Origin: Planctomycetota bacterium
GTDB lineage: Bacteria > Planctomycetota > JAJSAM01 > JAJVHW01
DNA: 64,000 bases
Direction: 5' to 3'
Assembly: GCA_965248445.1 (NCBI GenBank)
Contig: CBDFJG010000004.1
Coordinates: 1,728,001 to 1,792,000, forward strand
Numbering within the stretch: position 1 is the stretch's first letter; every line of letters starts with the position of its first letter. The notes beneath the pieces were generated by a model that saw only the letters and a list, made by a program, of their open reading frames with translations, had not been told where the DNA came from and searched no databases. Below, piece by piece: positions 20,941-55,642 of this stretch. The position numbers and the translations under genes are program-made.

Positions 20941-21837
20941 TCAGTCGGTCCACTCGTCGCGGAAGATCTCGGCCCACTCACGCGCGATCCGCGCGGCGTG
21001 CGGGGCCTCTTCCTCAACGGTGTCGGCGAGGTCGATCAGGCCCTTCGCCCGCTTCGCGAGGTCCTTCGCCTTCAGCCGCTTCTTGCTCGCGGCCGGTCCG
21101 TGAACCCCGCCGACGAGCTTCGCGACGCGCCGCTGCGCGGCGAACTCGGCCTCGTGGTCTCCCTCGCGGAGCGCTTGCGAACGGGCAGCCGCGGTCTCAG
21201 CAGCCTCAGTACGCGCGAATCGCTCCGCGGCGCCGTCGAGGACCTCGGTGGCTTCGAGCACTCGGCCGGCTTCGACCAGCGTCTCCGCCCGTGCGAGCAT
21301 CCGACCGGCAATGACTGCCTGCGTCTCGGCATCGGCGCGTTCCAGATAGCGAAGTTGTTTCTCGAGGTCGCGCTTGCTGAGTCCGCCCGGTCGTCCTTCC
21401 CACTGCACCGTACCGTTGCCGTCGATCAGAACCGCGTGCGGCAGCATCTTGACCTCGTAGCCGGAGCCGCCGCCGAACGCCATCGGGAAGCCCACGCGCG
21501 GCGCACGGTGGACGAGGTAGCGCAGACCCGTCGCGCGCTCTTCGTGCGTCACACCGACGACGTTCAGTCCCTTGCGGCGCAAGGCCTCGTCGAGACGCGC
21601 GAGTTGCGGGAGCGCGCTCCGCGAGGCGGGACAGTCCGTCTTCCAGAACGCGAGGAGGACCATCTCGCCATCGAAGCCTGCGATCTCGGTGCGTCCGTCG
21701 CCGCGGGACCAGTCGCGGGCCGTCAACTCGGGAGCCGTCTCACCGACCAGCGTGTGCCGCGCGTCGGCACCGCTGGGGGTCGCGATGACCAGAGCAGCAG
21801 CCAGCACTGCGAGCAGACGGAGTGGAGTGATGCGCAT
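20941..21837 (-). CDS. Secreted TlpA/redoxin-family protein (CxxS) with helical C-terminal extension
   Basis: Signal peptide, VGETAPEL, LLAFWKTDCPAS, LPHAVLIDGNG (cis-Pro loop). Confidence 0.8.
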   Translation of the reverse strand: MRITPLRLLAVLAAALVIATPSGADARHTLVGETAPELTARDWSRGDGRTEIAGFDGEMVLLAFWKTDCPASRSALPQLARLDEALRRKGLNVVGVTHEERATGLRYLVHRAPRVGFPMAFGGGSGYEVKMLPHAVLIDGNGTVQWEGRPGGLSKRDLEKQLRYLERADAETQAVIAGRMLARAETLVEAGRVLEATEVLDGAAERFARTEAAETAAARSQALREGDHEAEFAAQRRVAKLVGGVHGPAASKKRLKAKDLAKRAKGLIDLADTVEEEAPHAARIAREWAEIFRDEWTD

Positions 21838-27518: not shown

Positions 27519-27719
27519 AGGCGAGCTTCTCACTCCGCGCGCGCAACGGAGTCGCTCTCCAGATGCAGCGAGTAGCGAGGGCGCGCGGATTGCGGAGCAA
27601 GGCGCGTGACCGCAGCCCTCCGTAGCGGTCGGAGACCGCGTAGGAGGGAGACATGCGCCCGAAGCGTGGCCGAGGATCGCCGCGCGATCCGCAGGCGACG
27701 CGCGCGAGTGCCCCCGCCC

Positions 27720-28640
27720 CTACTCGTCGTCGCTAGCCGGCTTCAGCTTCTTCAGCTGGTGCGCGAGCGCGTTGCCCGTGATCTTCCCGCCCAGGTCGCG
27801 CGGCTTCTCCTCACCGGGCAGGAGGACGAGCAGAGTCGGCACCCTCTCCACTCCCAGGTCCCGGGCGAGAAGTGCGTGATCCGCGTTCTGCAGGTCCAAA
27901 CGCAAGAGCGCCCATCCCTCGGCGGCCGTCGCCGCGCCCTTGGACCCGAGTGTCCCCTTCTCGAACTTACGCGACGCCTTGACCTCGAGCCGCGCCTTCT
28001 TGTTGTCGTCAGCGCCTTCGCTGCGCCCGACGTACACGAGGACCGGCTTGTCGTCTTCGCGCGCCGCGTCCAGTTGCTCGCACGAAACCGTCCGCTCTTC
28101 GCCCTCGCCCTCACCGACGACCGTCGCGCGTGCGAGCGGGACGCGCGTCTTCGGGTGATCGCGCTCGTACTTGTCCGCGGCGTCGTCGAGCCACTTCGAC
28201 AGCGGCGATGCCGCATACGCGTTCGGCGCGCGATCGATGACGGTTCCGTCCGGCTTCGCGACGAACACGAGGATCGACGGATCCTCGTTCTCGTTCCCCT
28301 GATCGTGGGTCCAGGGGATGATCTTCCCGTTCAGCCCGTCGTACAGCCACTCGACGGCCTCGAAGCGCGCGACGACCTTCTGGAAGTCCTCGTCCTTCTG
28401 CACCCGGTCACGCCAGGTGTCGCACGGTACTCATATCCTGGACTTCCACGCCGTCACGATGAGCAGCGGCTTGCCGCTCTTCTTCGCACTCTCCACGCCC
28501 TTGTCGAGGGTCGTGTGCCAGACCTTGTCGCCCGCGAAGACGTCCCCGGGCACGAACGCAGTGGCGGCAAGGAGCGCCAGGCCGCCCGCAGCAATGCGGA
28601 CCGCGGCGCTCAGGGTCGGGGCTCTCGCTCGCATGGCCAT
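27720..28640 (-). CDS. Secreted thioredoxin-fold selenoprotein (U-V-P-C), 306 aa, Sec at codon 70 (TGA 28431-28433)
   Basis: Track ORFs 28431..28670 and 27720..28403 are in the same frame and joined through one TGA: ...AKKSGKPLLIVTAWKSRI-U-VPCDTWRDRVQKDEDF...; signal peptide; SECIS-like hairpin follows. Confidence 0.85.
28399..28430 (-). promoter_or_regulatory. Candidate bacterial SECIS element
   Basis: UGA-GUACCG-UGC(GA)CACCUGG-CGUGA-CCGGGUGCA: 7-bp upper stem, GU-containing loop starting 18 nt after the UGA. Confidence 0.7.
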
Positions 28641-28779
28641 TCTCGGTCTCACAACATCTCTCCGTCTCACAGCGTCTCATTCCTGTCCGTGGGACACCGC
28701 ACGCCCCACAATTCGCTGGTCGCCGGGGGTACGACGCCCGCTCCATCGCGGGGGTTCCGCCCGCCGACGGCCCACGGCC

Positions 28780-29304
28780 ATGGTATCGACCCAGCGACTG
28801 TCCCTCCTGATCTCGCTGGTCGCGGCGTGCCTGACCGCAGCCTGTCAGACGCCGCGTCGCGTCTGCGGCACCGCGCCGGAGGGCGGGGGCCCGCCGGTCC
28901 TCACGACGCGCGAGGACGAGATCTGCGAGAGCGTGCGCTGGCGGGTGCTCGAACAGATGCGCGTCCGCGAGGAGTTCTCGTACGCCCACGCCGAGCGGTT
29001 GTTCACCGCGGCGGAGACGTGGAGCACCTCGACCACGCTCGAGGACCTGCGCCGGCGCGTCGCCGCCGTCGACGACGAGCAGGCTATGGCCACCACGATC
29101 GTGGACGCGGCCCGCCACGCGTGGGAGACGTCCAAGGCTCCGGTCAGCACCGGGTGCGAGACGGACGAAGCGTGCGTGGCGGAGGCGGCCGCGCACGGTG
29201 CGCGGGTCGCGCTACGACGCCGCTCGGCCTACCTCAAGATCACACCGGAGATGATCGAACAGGACCGCGACCTCGACCGCGACTGGGACTACCTGTTGCG
29301 CTGA
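28780..29304 (+). CDS. Hypothetical lipoprotein
   Basis: MVSTQRLSLLISLVAACLTAAC lipobox; host-like codon usage; no recognised domain. Confidence 0.7.
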   Translation: MVSTQRLSLLISLVAACLTAACQTPRRVCGTAPEGGGPPVLTTREDEICESVRWRVLEQMRVREEFSYAHAERLFTAAETWSTSTTLEDLRRRVAAVDDEQAMATTIVDAARHAWETSKAPVSTGCETDEACVAEAAAHGARVALRRRSAYLKITPEMIEQDRDLDRDWDYLLR

Positions 29305-29313
29305 CCTCTGGTC

Positions 29314-29727
29314 CTATCTCGTCCTGATCGACTCCACGTAGGCCGCGATGGCGGCGAGGTCGGTGGAGTCGCCTTCGAGTTCCTTGCCGCGGGCCTTGTA
29401 CTTGATCATCTCGTTGATCTTCTGCTGCAGCGTGACCACCGCCTTCTTGCGGCGGCTGTACTTCGGGTAGGCGAACTTCGCGGTGCGCAGATCGTCCTGC
29501 GGCTTGTCCGGGTCCTCGTGGCAGGTCGCGCAGCTCTTGCGCCCCAGCTCCTTCGAATGGAAGAGCTCCTTGCCCCGCTCGACCGCCTTCGTCAGCGCCT
29601 CGGCCTCCGCCTTCGCGCGGGCCGCCTCGTCGTCCTGGGCGTTGGCCGGCGGGCGCACGGCAAAGGCGGCCAGACCAGCCAGTCCGGCGATGAGGACGGC
29701 CGCGAGGGTGAAGCGGGATGGGCGCAT
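29314..29727 (-). CDS. Secreted monoheme cytochrome c, SoxA/TsdA-like domain
   Basis: Signal peptide ending ANA-Q, CATCH, YPKY...VTLQQKINEM...LAAIAAYV; aggag SD. Confidence 0.82.
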   Translation of the reverse strand: MRPSRFTLAAVLIAGLAGLAAFAVRPPANAQDDEAARAKAEAEALTKAVERGKELFHSKELGRKSCATCHEDPDKPQDDLRTAKFAYPKYSRRKKAVVTLQQKINEMIKYKARGKELEGDSTDLAAIAAYVESIRTR

Positions 29728-29833
29728 GGGTGTCTCCTGGAGGGGGCGCGCAGTCTCGGCGCACCCGTTCTCTGAGGATATCGACGCAATCCCGATGCCG
29801 CTTGGTTCCCCGGGAGCGTCGCTTCTCGCGCCG

Positions 29834-31594
29834 CTACTCGCGGGCCGCCCGGAGCAGACCCGCGGGAACACCCTCGAAGACCCTCTCGTGGCCGTCCGGC
29901 CAGCGCACGAGGACCCGGTCGACAGGCCCGTGGTTTCCCAGCCCGAACGTCAGGACGCGCTCGCTCTCGGAGAGGTATCCGGCCCCGCTGCGGACGTCGC
30001 GGATCTGCGTACGCTCGCCGGTCGTGACGGTTACGCGCGCCCCCAGCGCGTCCGTCGCGGGCGGCGCACCGATCACGTGCACGCGCAGCGACCGCTCCGC
30101 CGCGCCGTCCAGGTCGCAGCGCAGAAGTCGGGCGGGGCCGCCGTTCACCGTGACGCAGAGATCGAGGTCGCCGTCTCCGTCCACGTCGGCCGTTGCCAGC
30201 CCGCGGTGCACGCGCGGCACGGCGAAGTCCGGTCCCAGGCCCGCCGACACATCCACGAATCGCGGGTACCGCTTGCCCGGAACGTTGCGCAGCAACTGCA
30301 TCGGTTCTTCGTACGCGATCTCGGCGTGCACCGTCTGGATGGTCGGCTCGATGTGCCCGTTCGCCAGCAGCAGGTCGGGGCGGCCGTCGAGATCGGCGTC
30401 CACGAAGCGGAGTCCGAACGTCAGCGGATGGTGCGTCGCGAGGGAGACTCCCGAGATGTCCGACTTGTTGACGAACAGCTCGTCCTTCAACAGTTCGAAG
30501 AACGAGACCGGTTCGCCGCTGAAGTTGCCGACGGCCAGCACCGGCTTTCCCGTGTCCGGCAGCACGATCGAGTCGACGCCCATTCCAGCGCGTGCACGGG
30601 CCGTGACGGGGTCCACTGCGACTCCGGCGGCGTATCCGATCTCGGTGAACGTCCCGTCACCGTTGTTCCGGTACAGATAGTCGGGCTGTGTGTCGTTCGC
30701 GACGGCAATGTCCGGGCGCCCGTCGTCGTTGAAGTCGAGGATGCAGACGCCGAGGCTCTTGCCGTCGTCGTTGCGGACGCCTGCCGCGTCCGTGACGTCC
30801 TCGAACTTGTTGCCGCCTAGATTCCGGAACAGGCGGCAGCTCTCGCCGTCGTACTGCTTCGGGATGGCGTACGACTTGGTCGTGCCGTCCATCGTCGAGA
30901 AGACGTCGGTCTCCTTCGACCAGTGGACGTAGTGCGCCACGAACAAGTCGACCAGGCCGTCGCCGTCGTAGTCCGTGAACGCGGCGCCCGTCGCGAACGG
31001 CCCATGTTCGTTGCCCTCGGCATCCGTCCACGTCGCCGGCGCGAGGCCGGCGATCTCCGTGATCAGCGTGAACTTGTCGCCGAGGTTCTCGAAGAACTGG
31101 TAGCCGCCCACGCCCGCGATGAACAGGTCCTGGTCTCCGTCGCCGTCGGTGTCCGCGACGGCGCAGCCCATCGCTTGCATCCGGTCACCGATCCGCACCG
31201 CTCCCGTCACATCGACGAACTTCCAGTCCCCCTCGTTGCTGAACAGGCGCGTGCCATACGTCGGCCCCTCCTTGTCGTGACCCGGCCACGTGTCGCCGTC
31301 CAGCAGGAGCAGGTCAGGGTCGCCGTCCTGGTCGTAGTCGAAGAACGCGCAGCCCGCGCCCATCGTCTCGGGAAGCAGCTTGTCGCCGTACGCCCCGTTG
31401 GTGTGACTCCACCGAATCCCGGCGGCCTCGGTGACGTCTACGTACGACAGCGCGTTCATCGGGTGCTCGGAGTCGGTGGGCGCGGCCTCCGGATAGGACC
31501 TCGTGTAGGTCGGCGGAGTGACCGGCTCGGTCGCGTCCGGGTTGCCGCAGGTCGGGACGACCAGCAGCACGCAGAGCAACCCCCAGCGCCTCAT
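29834..31594 (-). CDS. CRTAC1-family FG-GAP repeat / ASPIC-UnbV protein (probable lipoprotein)
   Basis: Repeated DxDxDGxxDL motifs, C-terminal ALGARV...GAGYLS...LTFGLG...VRWPDG; ATGA overlap with the upstream gene. Confidence 0.92.
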   Translation of the reverse strand: MRRWGLLCVLLVVPTCGNPDATEPVTPPTYTRSYPEAAPTDSEHPMNALSYVDVTEAAGIRWSHTNGAYGDKLLPETMGAGCAFFDYDQDGDPDLLLLDGDTWPGHDKEGPTYGTRLFSNEGDWKFVDVTGAVRIGDRMQAMGCAVADTDGDGDQDLFIAGVGGYQFFENLGDKFTLITEIAGLAPATWTDAEGNEHGPFATGAAFTDYDGDGLVDLFVAHYVHWSKETDVFSTMDGTTKSYAIPKQYDGESCRLFRNLGGNKFEDVTDAAGVRNDDGKSLGVCILDFNDDGRPDIAVANDTQPDYLYRNNGDGTFTEIGYAAGVAVDPVTARARAGMGVDSIVLPDTGKPVLAVGNFSGEPVSFFELLKDELFVNKSDISGVSLATHHPLTFGLRFVDADLDGRPDLLLANGHIEPTIQTVHAEIAYEEPMQLLRNVPGKRYPRFVDVSAGLGPDFAVPRVHRGLATADVDGDGDLDLCVTVNGGPARLLRCDLDGAAERSLRVHVIGAPPATDALGARVTVTTGERTQIRDVRSGAGYLSESERVLTFGLGNHGPVDRVLVRWPDGHERVFEGVPAGLLRAARE

Positions 31595-34332
31595 CTGACA
31601 CGCTCCAGCCGATGGACGTGCACGGGCTGATCCTCGCGATTCACTTCGGGGTGCTCCCGGCGGTAGGCCTCGGTCCACTTCTGAGCGCTCTCGTCCGGGG
31701 CGAACTTCCGGTATGCCTGTTCGGCGGCGGACGCGGCTTGCTCCTCGCCCAGCGCGCGGTAGATCTGGAACCGCATCCAGTGAGCGACGCGGTCTTCGGG
31801 GTCGATCGCCAGCACACGCAGGGCGCTCGCCATCGCTTCGTCGTAGTCGCCCAGCTTGTAGTGGATACGAGCGAGCGACCGATGAATGGTGCGGTCGTTC
31901 GGGAATGTCTCGAGCGCCCGGCCGTACGCTGCGATGGAACCGTCCTGATCGCCGGCCTTCTCGAGCGCCACCCCGAAGAAGAACGCGTTCTGCGGGTCGG
32001 CGATCCTGCGTTCGTCCGCACGGCGCAGGTGCGCGAGCGCCCCCGCCACGTCCCCGTCCCGCAGTGCCACGCGGGCCAGGTTGCGCGGGCCGTCGGGTTT
32101 CTCGGGGACGAACGCGTCCACCGTCTCGAACGCGATCCGTGCGGTGACGGTGTCCCCCTGCAGCAGCGCGCCGATGCCCCAGTCGTTCCAGCGCACCCAC
32201 GCTTCGGCTGCTCCGTTGGGGGCCACCGGCAGCTCGCCCCCACCCGAGACCGGCAGATCGACCGTGGACGTCGCCAGATCGGTGACCGGGAAGTCGGGCA
32301 CCGGCCTCCCGGCCATCACACGGGCATACGTATACTCCGTGTACTTGCGGTTGAACTTCCGCCAGCGCAGCCGCGCCTCCACACGCAACGCCCGTGGCGC
32401 CTCGTCCTGCGGGACAGAGAAGGCGAAGCGGACCAGATCGGCCGTGCCCGGCCCGATCGTGTTCACGTGCACCGGCGCCCGGAAGTCCGAGGGGTTGCGC
32501 CGGTCGGCCTCGACGCCGTCCTCGTCCACGAACACGACGCGATAGAAGTGTGCGTCAGTGTCCACGTACCTCGTGTCGGCGTCGAGCGCACCGCTCTCGA
32601 ACAACACGCGGCTCGCGTCGTCCGCGTCGCTGATGCGCAGGTGGATCCACGACTCGTTGCTGTCGAGCGTGCCGCCGGGGAAGGTGTGCCCGTTCCCGGC
32701 ATTGCGCACCACGACGTGCAGTTCGACGTTCTCGCCGGGCGCCACGGGGACCGGGCGGAGATCCGGCGCGGAGACTGGAGCGCTGCCGTCCCGGCGCACC
32801 GCGAAGACATCGAGGCGCAGCGAGTCCTGCACGAACTTCTCCTTGTCGCGCAGACCCTCTTCGTCGCCGATCAGATGCGAGATCGCTGTGTTCGGACCGA
32901 GGAACAGGTGCGACCGGACCATGCCGTCTTTCGCCGCCAGATCTCCGAGAGTCGCGGGGACGCGGGGCATGTGGCAGTCCTGACAAGAACGCGCTTTCTC
33001 GGGGAGGTAGAACGTGCGCGCGGCGTTGCGCGACACGCCCGAGTCGTGCCACGCGTCGTACTCGTCCTGACCGCGCAGCCAGCGATAGCCGTTGACCGGC
33101 TTGTCGAGCGAGACCTTGTGGCACGTCGCGCAGAACTCCGACTTGCGGTGCAGCGGCACGAGCATCTGGCGCTTGTGCACATCGGGCTTGGCCCTGATCA
33201 ACAGTTCGTGGATCTCGGCGAGCACGCCCGTCTTCGCGCCCGCGAACAGGTACGGGTCCGGCGCGTCGTCCGCGACGATGTAGTTTCCGTTGCCGACGAC
33301 GCCGTGCGCGCCGTCGATGGCGTGGCACGCCAGGCACGTGAGCCCGGCCTGCGACTCGGGCACGGTCGGATCGACCTCGTCCATCCACTTGCCGGTCAGC
33401 ATGACCGCCGGATCGTGACATCCGGCGCACCACTGCGAACGGCGCCGTCCGTCGTCCTCGGCTCGCAGATCCTCGATCGCAGCGCGGTAGAACGGGTTGT
33501 TGAACGAGGAGTAGCGGTGCACGGACCGCGACCACTGCTCGGTCACGTCTGGATGGCACGTCGCGCAACTGGCCGAGCCGAGCGCCGTCCCCTTCACGAA
33601 GCCGAACTCCTCGAGTTCCGCGGCGTGCTGCGCGGGGTCGAGCAGGTCGCCGTCGACGAGCAGGCGTCCGGGCAGCGCGCCGCCCGTTCGCGTGCGTGTG
33701 GCCGCGGGGAAGAAGATGTTGTCGGGGTCGCCGCCTGCCGGCCCCTCCGGCGGCCAGTAGTCGCGCCACGGGTCGATGCCGTCGCCCGCATTCGGCGCCG
33801 GCAGCGGTGGACGCGGCGCCTCGCCGGGGTGCGTCGCGTAGTGCACGCCCAGGAAACCGAGCGTCAGCGCGATCGGCACGCCCACGCCAATCCACTTCGC
33901 GCGTCTGGAGGGCTTGTGGTGCGAGATCAGCCGGTGCGCGGCGAACACTGCGGGCACGAGCAGAGCCAGCACGCGGTGCGACTGGAAGAACACCGCGTTG
34001 TCCGCGCTGTTCGCCTTCTCCTTGATGAAGATCCCCGTGACCGCCAGCCCCACCATGGCGACCGTGAGTCCGATGCCGGTCCAGATCGCGCGGCGGTTCC
34101 GCATCGCCAGCGCGCGCTTCATGTGCCACACGATGAACCAGGCCATCGGGGCCAGGATCAGCAGCCCCACCACGACGTGGAGCACCAGCATCCACTGGTA
34201 GAACGTGGGCAGCACCGACGCGCGCGGCTGCGTGAGGAACAGGTAGGCGGCATTCCCGATCAGGAATGCGCCCGTCGCCAGCAGGACGACGAGAAGCCGC
34301 CGCTGCCCCGGGGTGAGGATCGTCCGCGCCAT
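31591..34332 (-). CDS. Membrane-anchored pentaheme cytochrome c with C-terminal TPR repeats
   Basis: About five N-terminal TM helices, four with His; five CxxCH motifs (CATCH, CAGCH, CLACH, CATCH, CQDCH); GHTFPGG region; TPR-like helical repeats. Confidence 0.9.
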   Translation of the reverse strand: MARTILTPGQRRLLVVLLATGAFLIGNAAYLFLTQPRASVLPTFYQWMLVLHVVVGLLILAPMAWFIVWHMKRALAMRNRRAIWTGIGLTVAMVGLAVTGIFIKEKANSADNAVFFQSHRVLALLVPAVFAAHRLISHHKPSRRAKWIGVGVPIALTLGFLGVHYATHPGEAPRPPLPAPNAGDGIDPWRDYWPPEGPAGGDPDNIFFPAATRTRTGGALPGRLLVDGDLLDPAQHAAELEEFGFVKGTALGSASCATCHPDVTEQWSRSVHRYSSFNNPFYRAAIEDLRAEDDGRRRSQWCAGCHDPAVMLTGKWMDEVDPTVPESQAGLTCLACHAIDGAHGVVGNGNYIVADDAPDPYLFAGAKTGVLAEIHELLIRAKPDVHKRQMLVPLHRKSEFCATCHKVSLDKPVNGYRWLRGQDEYDAWHDSGVSRNAARTFYLPEKARSCQDCHMPRVPATLGDLAAKDGMVRSHLFLGPNTAISHLIGDEEGLRDKEKFVQDSLRLDVFAVRRDGSAPVSAPDLRPVPVAPGENVELHVVVRNAGNGHTFPGGTLDSNESWIHLRISDADDASRVLFESGALDADTRYVDTDAHFYRVVFVDEDGVEADRRNPSDFRAPVHVNTIGPGTADLVRFAFSVPQDEAPRALRVEARLRWRKFNRKYTEYTYARVMAGRPVPDFPVTDLATSTVDLPVSGGGELPVAPNGAAEAWVRWNDWGIGALLQGDTVTARIAFETVDAFVPEKPDGPRNLARVALRDGDVAGALAHLRRADERRIADPQNAFFFGVALEKAGDQDGSIAAYGRALETFPNDRTIHRSLARIHYKLGDYDEAMASALRVLAIDPEDRVAHWMRFQIYRALGEEQAASAAEQAYRKFAPDESAQKWTEAYRREHPEVNREDQPVHVHRLERVR

Positions 34333-52478: not shown

Positions 52479-53306
52479 TCAGCCCTCTTCCGAGACCGCC
52501 TCGGTGAGCGAGGCGTTCTGCCACTCACGCTGGCCCGTCTCGATCGACTTCATGAGCCGCGTACGGCACTCCTCGCGCAGCTGCTCGAAGAAGTCGTCGG
52601 GGGACTCCATCCCGAATTCGTCCGTGTCGGCTTCGAGCGCCTGCAGGATCGGCGGCACGCGCTCGAGCACGTACTCGAGCCGCTCGAGAAGCGTCTCGGA
52701 CATCTCGCCCGCGCTCGCCTCGTTCTCCGCGAACGCCCCCTGAAATCGGTCGGCGAGGAAGATGTGATTGAAGCCGAGGTGTCGGGACTCGTCCTCCAGC
52801 ACGCGTGTGCACGCGTCGTCGAGCACGGGGTCCACGTGTGCGTCGCGGATCTGCTCGAGCGAGCGCTTCGCGAGTACCTCGGAGATGAGCGAGCCGGTGA
52901 GCCACTGCATCGGGTCATCGCACATGATCGCGCTCTGGAACAGGTAGCCCGGGGGGAACCGCCGGATCGACAGGGGCTCGCTGTCGATCCGGCCGTAGTA
53001 CCGCGTGAACAGCTCAACGTGCTTCGACTCGTCCATCAGCATCGAAGTGAGGAAGAACTGCCCCTCGACCTCCGAGGTGCGCCCCAGGATCTGGATGATC
53101 TGCGTGATGGAGTAGAGCGCGGCCTGCTCGCCCATCAAGATGGGGCTGAGCGCGCGTGCGAGCGAGCGGCGGTGGCTGTCCTTCTCGAGCGCGCCCGGCG
53201 CGAACCAGTCGATGTCCGCCGGCGACCAAGTGATCTTGATCGCCTTGTGCCAGAGCTTCATCTGCTTGCGCTGCTTCAGATCGGGAAGCGTCTTGTAGAT
53301 CCGCAT
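52479..53306 (-). CDS. Ferritin-like dimetal-carboxylate enzyme (R2lox/AurF/RNR-beta-like)
   Basis: Ligand pattern GEQAA...DESKH...SEVLA...DESRH; N-terminal WHKA...WSPADIDW. Confidence 0.85.
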   Translation of the reverse strand: MRIYKTLPDLKQRKQMKLWHKAIKITWSPADIDWFAPGALEKDSHRRSLARALSPILMGEQAALYSITQIIQILGRTSEVEGQFFLTSMLMDESKHVELFTRYYGRIDSEPLSIRRFPPGYLFQSAIMCDDPMQWLTGSLISEVLAKRSLEQIRDAHVDPVLDDACTRVLEDESRHLGFNHIFLADRFQGAFAENEASAGEMSETLLERLEYVLERVPPILQALEADTDEFGMESPDDFFEQLREECRTRLMKSIETGQREWQNASLTEAVSEEG

Positions 53307-53395
53307 CGCGGCCCTCCGCCGCCCGGTATACCGCCCCGCCCGGGAGGACTTCCCGTTCTGGCGGGGCGAGGCGCCGGGGGCGCTACCCTTCTCCG

Positions 53396-55642
53396 ATGCG
53401 ACTCCTCTCCCTCGCCGCTCTCGCCGTGGTCGGTGCCGTCGCACCTGCCGCCCTCGCCCAGGACACGGCTCCGCGGCACAGGCCGCTGGTCGAACTGTTC
53501 ACCTCACAGGGTTGAAGCAGCTGCCCGAAAGCCGACGAGTTCGTCGGCGAGTTGACGACGCCCGAGTTCCTCGCCGGTGCCACCGTCATCACCTGGCACG
53601 TGGACTACTGGGACTACCTGGGCTACGAGGATCCCTACGGCAAGTCAGAGCACACGCGGCGACAGCAGCTGTACCGAAAGCACCGCGCACCGAAGCACTT
53701 CGGTACACCACAGATCGCGATCGCGAACGAGTTCCTGCCCTGGGAGAAGGGCGCGTACGCGCGGGTTCCGGATCTCATCGCGGAGGCGAAGAAGAACGCG
53801 CCGTCGTTCAACCTCGTCGCGTCCATCGAGCGCGATGAACGAGGCGTCGTCGTCCACGCCGAACTGGATGCGATCGGCGAGCAGAGCACCGACGGTCTGG
53901 TGCTCCGCCCGGTACTGCTGCTGCGCGAGGCGAGGACCGACGTCACTGCAGGTGAGAACGAAGGAAAGACGCTGACGGAGTGGTTCGTGGCGCTGACAAC
54001 GGCCGTCCTGCCGGCGTCGCAAGCCGTCGACGGCGTGGCGAAGTTCCACCTGAAGGACACGACCGCGCACAGTGCGGAGCAGCTCGCAGTCGCCGTGCTT
54101 GTCGAGCGCGTCGACGACCTGCGCACGCTCGACTCGTGGTTCCTCGGCGTTGCTCCGCCGGCCGAGAGGCCCGACCGCGAGCACGACGACCAGCACATGG
54201 AGTCGGCGCTCGCCGCGGCCGGTGACAACGCCGTACAGCTCGAGCGGTTCCTCAAGCACTACGAAGACGACGAACAGAAGAGCACTGCGGCCCGCTGGCT
54301 CGTGGAGAACATGGAGGGCAAGGGCTACGTCGTCACCGAACTGCGCAACGCCAAGGGCGAGACGGTGCCGTTCGACACGCTCTCGTACAAGACGTACGCC
54401 GAATCGCTCTCGGCGATCGAGGCGCTCGAGAAGGAGCACGGCGAACTCGAGTTCGCGCGGGACCGGATCGTCGAGGACCTGGCTACAGTCACCGCGGAGT
54501 TCCTGATTCGCCGTACGGACCAGGCAATCGCAGCGTGGCGTGCGCAGCCGGCATCCCGGCGCGTCGACTTCGACACGTTCCTGAACCACGTCCTCCCCTA
54601 CCGCGGCAGCCAGGAGCCTCTGGACGACTGGATCGGCCCGCTGCGTGAGCGGACGGGTGAGATCGCCGCGGGACTGCCCCAGAACGCCGGGATCGACGAG
54701 CTCTACCGGGCGCTCAACAAGGACGTGAACTCCCGGGTGAAGTTCAACGAGCGCTTCTACCTGCACCCGACGGACCAGAGCTTCGGTGAGATGCTCGAGA
54801 GCGGCCAGGGCCGCTGCGAGGACATCACGAACATGATCACATACGCCGCGCGCAGCGCGGCGCTGGCGACGGCCGCGGACTACACGCCGTGGTGGGCGCA
54901 CCGCGACAACAACCACGCCTGGAACGTGCTCCTCGACCAGAACGGTGTGGGCGCCGACAAGGCGCAGTCCCATGCGGCGAAGATCTACCGCAAGACGTTC
55001 GCCGTCCAGCGGAACGCGCTCGCGTTCCAGCTACCTGAGGGCCGCGAGGCAGCAAACCGGTTCATGGCGAGCACGACGTACGTGGACGTCACCGACCAGT
55101 ACCGCGAGACCAAAGATGTCGGCACGTGGATCATCTCACCCGATCATGCCCTCGAGCGCTTCGCGTACCTCTGCGTGTTCAACGGCGGCGAGTGGAAGGC
55201 GATCCAGTGGGCGCCGGTCCACTACGCGTACGCGAAGTTCGCAAAGATGGGCCGCGACATCCTGTACCTGCCGGCGCTGCACGACGGCGACCGGCTGATC
55301 CCAGCGAACGCACCGCTCACCGTCGACGACGAAGGCGAGCGTTGGCCGCTGGCGGGCAAGGACCCCGGCACGAGCTTGCTCGCTACCTCCACCAAGCCGA
55401 GGCAGAAGAGCGCGGAGACCGGCGAGGTCACGCCCATCTCGCACCTGACCGCGGGCACCGAGTACACGCTGAAGCGGTGGGCTGACGGGGACTGGGTCGA
55501 CGTCGCGACGGTCATCGCCGGCAAGGAACCGCTGCGTTTCGACGACCTGCCGGAGGACGCGCTCTACTGGCTGGTGGCCAAGGACTCACGCAGGCTCGAG
55601 CGCCCGTTCACGATCCAGGAAGGCCGCCAGCGCTTCTGGTAG
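53396..55642 (+). CDS. Secreted selenoprotein: DUF1223 (U-S-S-C) fused to a transglutaminase-like domain, 748 aa, Sec at codon 40 (TGA 53513-53515)
   Basis: MRLLSLAALAVVGAVAPAALAQ signal, VELFTSQG-TGA-SSCPKAD in frame with HVDYWDYLG..DPY, TPQ, GENEGKTL; then GRCED and NHAWN. Confidence 0.9.
53516..53554 (+). promoter_or_regulatory. Candidate bacterial SECIS element
   Basis: UGA-AG-CAGCU-(GCCCGAAA)-GCCGACG-AGUU-CGUCGGC-G-AGUUG: perfect 7-bp upper stem, GU in the loop 22 nt after the UGA, 5-bp lower stem. Confidence 0.78.

Follow-up and report, generated by a model that had tools for sequence, protein, structure and literature searches.

The window, by which we mean the whole 64 000-nt stretch of Planctomycetota DNA analysed here, carries on its minus strand two ORFs of 79 aa (28670–28431) and 227 aa (28403–27720) that lie in the same frame, and the single stop codon between them is the TGA at 28431–28433. 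The initial annotation had described these as two ORFs of one frame parted by the TGA only, and this was borne out when the frame was read from 28640 to 27720. With the TGA taken as selenocysteine (Sec, U), the frame specifies a protein of 306 aa that runs ...AKKSGKPLLIVTAWKSRI-U-VPCDTW... and carries the motif U70-V-P-C73 (features are collected in Table 1). The ATG at 28640 was assumed to be the start codon, with ATG 28634 and GTG 28670 as possible alternatives. Four sequencing runs of a single sample, probably the one the window came from, gave contigs that agree base for base, with zero differences across 27677–28800, which makes an assembly slip an unlikely origin of the TGA. The 227-aa downstream half is present in a public protein collection as a protein of its own (P0002); thus, gene callers do split this gene, as had been expected of standard callers.

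Table 1. Features of the predicted selenoprotein gene; positions are those of the window
Feature	Position	Strand	Basis and remarks
Whole gene, 306 codons, Sec at codon 70	28640–27720	minus	ATG 28640 taken as start; stop TAG 27722–27720; supported by full-length Cys homologues of 287–323 aa
Predicted Sec-pathway signal peptide	28533–28640	minus	n-region rich in Arg, then a hydrophobic core and a V-F-A cleavage site; lipobox and twin-arginine motif both absent
Domain 1, catalytic thioredoxin fold (Thioredoxin_7/DsbD-gamma/DsbH-like), mature residues 1–126	28155–28532	minus	PF13899, structure model and fold search
In-frame TGA, predicted Sec70	28431–28433	minus	Start of helix 2, the place of the nucleophilic Cys in thioredoxins; codon census and model
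Cys73, second residue of UxxC, predicted resolving cysteine	28422–28424	minus	Cys in 55/55 loci, Cys or Sec at this place having formed part of the search pattern
Predicted bacterial SECIS, CACCUGG-CGUGA-CCGGGUG	28401–28419	minus	7-bp stem; 12–30 nt past the TGA; loop 18 nt after the UGA; −11.5 kcal/mol
Family signature EWLYDGLNGKIIPWT...G...DP, strand 3 to likely cis-proline, mature E58–P85	28278–28361	minus	Invariant and near-invariant columns; most conserved stretch of the protein
Third cysteine, mature C151 (C187 of the precursor), start of domain 2	28080–28082	minus	In 33/42 near-full-length loci
Domain 2, DsbD-gamma-like thioredoxin fold without CxxC, likely cis-proline kept (V-P-T)	27741–28145	minus	Fold and profile match

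We surveyed homologues of the gene at the DNA level, examining 65 loci. Three had no motif in frame (two start past the motif, at the edge of a contig, and one carries a frameshift), and the remaining 62 collapsed to 55 distinct sequences, the window included. At the Sec position these 55 loci, which are related and non-independent, carry TGA in 45 cases, TGC in nine and TGT in one, with no other codon and never TAA or TAG. A search for CxxC or UxxC at the TGA position, the check proposed in the initial annotation, thus returned 45 Sec-type TGA codons, 10 Cys codons and nothing else. At the protein level, scoring 8000 candidates gave 42 matches, namely the half from the window itself, 11 full-length proteins and 30 short ones of 205–233 aa. 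When 34 of the 41 other database proteins were aligned, all 11 full-length sequences had CxxC and all 23 short ones began right past the motif, the pattern expected if callers restart downstream of the TGA. The two halves occurring as separate genes elsewhere would have counted against a single gene; instead, the 11 Cys homologues are single full-length proteins (287–323 aa). Sec and Cys forms are ∼50 % identical, and in a sample of the phylum 25 of 401 genomes had a match at E < 1e-50 (six candidates scored per genome). Recognizing the gene corrects a systematic annotation error, in that 30 of the 41 homologues in the database appear there as short 'hypothetical' fragments that have neither signal peptide nor active site.

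A second architecture, in which domain 1 is fused to a helical C-terminal domain, was also observed (locus L110 of genome G130, and proteins P0107, P0108, P0111, P0112, P0115, P0119 and P0123). Six such database proteins are cut right past the motif; L110, read at the DNA level, has TGA and the motif U-G-P-C, and P0119 reads S-E-G-C at the motif. Separately, one genome (G307; loci L050 and L113) holds a broken copy of the family gene at about L050:4980–5330, in which the frame shifts directly past the motif and ∼170 bp have been inserted; the insert has inverted ends and resembles a small mobile element.

The host genome encodes the full machinery for selenocysteine insertion, the absence of which would have counted against the proposal. 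A tRNA-Sec was found at 68 bits (cut-off 47), along with SelA, SelB and SelD, each above its curated cut-off; SelD is of the Sec type and has an in-frame TGA of its own. SelA was present in 30 of 30 genomes tested (family carriers and relatives from the same order), and also in 31 of 43 other genomes of the phylum; being this common, its presence in carriers adds little support. We also scanned the host genome for stop codons with coding-like sequence to either side. Of 187 such TGAs, 28 lie in a UxxC or CxxU motif (some of these 28 being false), versus three of 230 TAG/TAA controls. This enrichment of read-through-like TGAs at CxxC positions bears on a reading in which UGA is decoded as Cys or Trp, through a change of code or leaky read-through. 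Cys homologues do exist, and Sec-tRNA pathways can misinsert Cys, both of which speak for such decoding; the enrichment speaks against it, as do the finding that the sole TCA-anticodon tRNA listed is tRNA-Sec and the fact that the homologous genes L024, L030 and L098 themselves end in TGA. We consider such decoding scarcely credible.

The same host is rich in thioredoxin-fold selenoprotein candidates. An in-frame TGA occurs in eight of its 11 Thioredoxin_7 matches, and the UxxC/CxxU candidates include what we take, from the look of their sequences, to be TlpA-like, AhpD-like, DUF3179-like and Thioredoxin_7 proteins. The sole DsbD of the genome (L119, G000:C1:397752–398936) is likewise predicted to contain Sec: read-through of a TGA gives U-I-N-C in the gamma domain, and a hairpin is present. 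Two Trx7/PDZ genes elsewhere in the genome, true members of NF041199, have the motif UxxU, and the genome further encodes a single VKOR and a single haem-copper oxidase subunit I. Within the window itself, the frame 53240–55639 (plus strand) contains an in-frame TGA at 53513–53515, which gives U-S-S-C in a secreted DUF1223 domain (127 bits) whose fusion partner is a transglutaminase-like domain; a hairpin lies downstream of this TGA, and DUF1223 was not seen in Table 1 of PMC13188914. The window also holds, at 20941–21837 (minus strand), a secreted AhpC/TlpA-like protein with the motif D-C-P-A-S (CxxS) followed by a helical domain.

A hairpin downstream of the TGA formed part of the initial annotation, and the sequence CACCUGG-CGUGA-CCGGGUG is present at 28419–28401. 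Taken alone, it is no more stable than shuffled sequences (z about −1) and is unremarkable for DNA of 69 % GC, such that its significance arises only across homologues. Using our own implementation, we applied the bacterial SECIS consensus given in the legend to Fig. 2 of PMC13188914 (loop of 3–9 nt, stem of 4–16 bp, G in the first two loop positions, spacing of 16–37 nt and MFE ≤ −7.5). The loop pattern was found in all 45 TGA loci, and 42 of these also passed the energy cut-off; upon synonymous recoding of the TGA loci (60 rounds) a mean of 7.9 and a maximum of 15 passed, against the 42 observed. Cys loci passed at chance level (2/10, recoded mean 1.8). Codon choice within the hairpin followed the same line. 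CGT encodes the loop Arg in 33 of the 44 TGA loci that have Arg at that place, compared with 38/562 Arg codons in the rest of these genes and 1/38, 1/30, 4/27 and 3/32 at four other conserved Arg sites; likewise, the stem Thr codon is ACC in 34/34 TGA loci, compared with 109/362 elsewhere and 6/38 at another conserved Thr site. Comparison with other conserved Arg and Thr sites controls for the relatedness of the loci. Judged by these patterns, selection on the putative SECIS is confined to TGA forms.

Moreover, the hairpin lies 6–8 nt further downstream in nine TGA loci, seven of which have a GGU loop; such relocated hairpins show SECIS turnover within a conserved coding sequence. Covariation of the hairpin, proposed as a check at the outset, turned out to lend weak support: 86.7 % of stem cells are paired, versus 20–48 % with the partners slid, but compensatory cells number just five, in two of seven pairs, and RNAalifold on the 45-row alignment missed the SECIS stem and returned a weak, unrelated 3-bp structure instead. 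Support for the SECIS thus comes from synonymous-codon selection and from hairpin relocation in nine loci, with classical covariation being weak.

These observations also bear on whether the TGA could be a real stop, be it in a pseudogene, a split gene or through assembly error. That gene callers recorded the 227-aa half as a protein, and that one homologous locus (L050/L113) is truly broken, would fit such a stop. It is hard to reconcile, however, with the occurrence of TGA at this very codon in 45 divergent loci and of TAA or TAG in none, with SECIS selection confined to TGA forms, with contigs that agree throughout, and with a downstream half that would be left with neither signal peptide nor active site; as such, we regard a real stop as very improbable. 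The two ORFs very likely constitute one gene whose internal TGA encodes selenocysteine, and that the window protein is a selenoprotein we hold to be close to certain.

The exchange of Sec and Cys within the family was followed on a midpoint-rooted tree of 44 rows, 11 rows with <200 residues past the motif having been left out. Its seven Cys rows need four changes (bootstrap 5–95 % range 4–4), of which strongly supported branches alone force one, and the AU test rejects a single Cys clade (P=0.014); the Cys forms thus do not group together. Two Cys loci, L025 and L028, retain an intact SECIS pattern, and both are lone tips on the tree. The most distant readable loci (L083, L110 and L111) have TGA, and distant Cys proteins (P0082 and P0085) also exist. 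Sec-to-Cys reversion appears the likelier direction, subject to the midpoint rooting of the tree. Loss of the Sec machinery was considered as the cause of the Cys forms and rejected, since genomes G001, G002, G004 and G005 all keep SelA and tRNA-Sec; G005 carries one Sec form and one Cys form. Several SelB matches in this survey of genomes cover just the first 350 profile positions and may represent related GTPases rather than SelB. According to a 2026 review (PMC13188914), bacteria show few Sec-to-Cys changes, for the most part in FdhA and SelD, and selenoproteins are rarely kept by aerobes. The present family, and a host with a haem-copper oxidase, may be counter-examples to these two generalizations as worded there. 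The family also offers a natural test set for why Sec is kept over Cys, given pairs that are ∼50 % identical, both forms in G005, and Cys forms in genomes that make Sec.

The protein is predicted to be secreted. A hydropathy window detected a hydrophobic core in 54 of the 55 loci, with no lipobox in any and a Tat-like match in one. The lead-in and CxxC had been read as a Thioredoxin_7/DsbD-gamma-like pattern, and we found that the Pfam Thioredoxin_7 (PF13899) match spans the TGA, at E = 3e-10 and 40.5–41.5 bits, above the cut-off of 27. Among 38 aligned family members 23 matched PF13899 at E ≤ 0.01, and 15 are truncated ahead of the motif. Structure prediction of the read-through product, likewise suggested beforehand, yielded a model (pLDDT 92.5, pTM 0.73) with two thioredoxin folds, in which helix 2 of domain 1 starts one residue past Sec. 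Among the matches listed for domain 1 were 3f9u_B, a domain from Bacteroides that is related to cytochrome c biogenesis (Z 13.6, rmsd 2.6, 122 aligned), and DsbH 2ju5 (Z 12.6, rmsd 3.5, 117 aligned). Domain 2 matched DsbD-gamma 1vrs_D in fold (Z 13.0, rmsd 2.2, 113 aligned) and in a sequence profile (E = 4.5e-4). Many ordinary thioredoxins lie within 2–3 Z units of the best folds, and so function is not fixed by the fold.

That the second thioredoxin-like domain has no CxxC proved correct; yet a lone cysteine, which had gone unmentioned, stands at the start of this domain (C187 of the precursor). At the motif position of domain 2 the window protein has no Cys, and across 42 near-full-length loci a full CxxC occurs in two and one Cys in nine more; from this comparison, domain 2 looks like a decayed catalytic domain. 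BLASTP finds no similarity between the two domains (E = 35) and so lends no support to a recent internal duplication. In domain 1, the residue ahead of the likely cis-proline is Asp, or His in some loci.

The window gene is flanked by opposite-strand genes, and a dispersed intergenic repeat of ∼130 bp lies between it and mobB (27570–27705), with 67 other blastn matches in the genome, 35 of which are at least 100 bp, and high depth in the run contigs. Beside the gene, at 28779–34332, is a block conserved in the host's family that comprises a small lipoprotein-like ORF (no Pfam match), a SoxA/TsdA-type cytochrome c, an FG-GAP/ASPIC-UnbV protein and a multihaem cytochrome with TPR repeats. In five loci of one lineage (L042, L059, L061, L065 and L069) opposite-strand genes are convergent to the family gene and encode a VKOR and DsbA-like fusion, Pfam-confirmed in L061; a second similar-looking convergent gene in L069 had no Pfam match. 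No functional neighbour is conserved in common between lineages, and the family gene is not adjacent to dsbD; the flanking genes vary by lineage and give no clue to the substrate.

Taken as a whole, the data are in our judgement probably best explained by a Sec-containing, predicted secreted protein with two thioredoxin folds, which likely acts in the cell envelope as a disulfide reductase or isomerase. It would be fed by DsbD, a reducing or isomerizing role to which both its fold and the presence of DsbD in this genome point. Mechanistically, UGA would be read as selenocysteine via the SECIS hairpin just downstream. From established thioredoxin chemistry it is highly probable that the Sec70 selenolate would attack the substrate disulfide and that Cys73 would resolve, leaving an Se–S bond. 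We lean slightly towards a scheme in which the single-copy DsbD (U-I-N-C) would keep the enzyme reduced, specificity for the substrate would lie in the conserved EWxYDG...WT...DP loop, and domain 2, devoid of CxxC, would bind substrate or partner in the manner of a PDI b domain.

Two other functions were weighed against this one. The first is that of an oxidase, which would insert disulfides into exported proteins and be re-oxidized by VKOR. The closest folds, DsbD-gamma, DsbH and thioredoxins, are reducing enzymes and DsbA is absent among the 50 matches listed, which argues against this function. The genome does have one VKOR, and the VKOR–DsbA fusion lies convergently downstream in L061, within the neighbour cluster of five loci, but this neighbour lies on the other strand and is confined to a single lineage. 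The X-P dipeptide inside 29 of the 45 UxxC motifs leaves the direction unfixed. On balance, an oxidase appears improbable to us. In the second, the UxxC would act not on general protein disulfides but on a small molecule or metal, such as peroxide, sulfenic acid, a heavy metal or apocytochrome thiols. A specific ligand is suggested by the near-invariant aromatic, Gly-rich loop and by the Asp or His before the likely cis-proline, a position that, according to the accessible part of PMC2665069, is usually Ile, Val or Thr in thioredoxin folds and tunes their function. A c-type cytochrome gene upstream in the host's family, and a top fold match that is a cytochrome-c-biogenesis-related domain, point the same way. 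Nevertheless, the cytochrome neighbours are limited to one lineage (12 loci), and UxxC is unlike the TxxU or UxxT peroxidase motifs of Table 1 in PMC13188914; we therefore judge action on such a ligand to be unlikely, if less so than oxidation.

Beyond the envelope reductase or isomerase that we prefer, a broader picture can be put forward as speculation that, taken in full, we think doubtful. The protein would be a selenium-based, PDI-like a-b enzyme within a largely selenium-run Planctomycetota envelope relay, where a Sec-DsbD would supply a group of exported Sec-thioredoxins, the host also encoding a haem-copper oxidase. Sec would be ancestral and have reverted to Cys several times in genomes keeping the Sec machinery, leaving an intact fossil SECIS in two Cys genes, and the SECIS would have moved to a new position in other lineages.

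To place the family among known selenoproteins, we compared it with public catalogues and literature. No matching row was recognized in Table 1 of PMC13188914, a catalogue of about 119 prokaryotic selenoprotein families, and the word stem 'Planctomyc' is absent from the accessible text of that review and from the main text of the BSepDB paper (PMC13326102). A search of published papers found none on this family and none pairing a selenoprotein with PF13899; the entries of BSepDB and the groundwater candidate lists may still bear on its novelty. Four terms looked up in one, possibly incomplete, BSepDB supplement gave no match, and the family could be listed in BSepDB under a generic thioredoxin label. 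In NCBIfam, neither the window protein nor the six proteins compared reached any family cut-off (best 17 bits versus 300).

Similarity to NF041199, the Trx7/PDZ (seleno)protein, lies in a secreted-type N-terminal Thioredoxin_7 domain with Sec in the CxxC position and in its occurrence in the same genome. The match to the window protein is weak, however (mature residues 4–59; 16.8–17.3 bits versus a cut-off of 300), and where NF041199 has a PDZ domain the window protein has no PDZ match in Pfam and a thioredoxin fold as its second domain. The motifs also differ: that of NF041199 is catalogued as CxxU (Table 1 of PMC13188914) and is UxxU in the two true members found here, whereas the window protein has UxxC. 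The VPGUxxT thioredoxin-like selenoproteins NF041382/NF041383 are set apart by the window motif I-U-V-P-C (12.5 bits versus 350). Thioredoxin-fold UxxC selenoproteins in Table 1 of PMC13188914 include Trx PF00085, the thiol:disulfide interchange protein PF13098, the thiol-disulfide isomerase-like cd02966, SaoT, the HUIPC motif NF047660 and TsoB NF045694. With these the family shares UxxC in a thioredoxin fold, a coding-region UGA with SECIS, and Cys homologues; among the rows of that table we recognized none with a tandem catalytic and CxxC-free thioredoxin layout or the EWxYDG...WT...DP signature. TsoB was weakly matched by three of 38 family members (best E = 4e-6).

In structure, DsbD gamma (1vrs_D) is the best match of domain 2, and 3f9u_B and DsbH (2ju5) those of domain 1. 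At 12–20 % identity, the window protein differs from DsbD gamma and DsbH in having two folds in one soluble chain, Sec for Cys, an inserted conserved loop, and no DsbD membrane or alpha domain; the gene has no PF02683 match, and the single DsbD of the genome is on another contig. PDI a-b domains and QSOX Trx1–Trx2, which were top Foldseek rows, are likewise secreted and have a catalytic followed by a non-catalytic thioredoxin domain. They are eukaryotic, however, and align at a TM-score of about 0.3, rmsd of 10–15 Å and 10–14 % identity; as modelled, the likeness is one of tandem layout, with no shared orientation and no homology shown beyond the thioredoxin fold. The proposal of a candidate new selenoprotein family is supported: this is an uncatalogued Planctomycetota family, tempered by the fact that the thioredoxin-fold UxxC class, Thioredoxin_7 types included, is already well known, so it is not a new kind. 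It is a real family of a familiar kind, set apart from the catalogues checked (NCBIfam and Table 1 of PMC13188914), and adds one well-supported family to the roughly 119 prokaryotic selenoprotein families catalogued.
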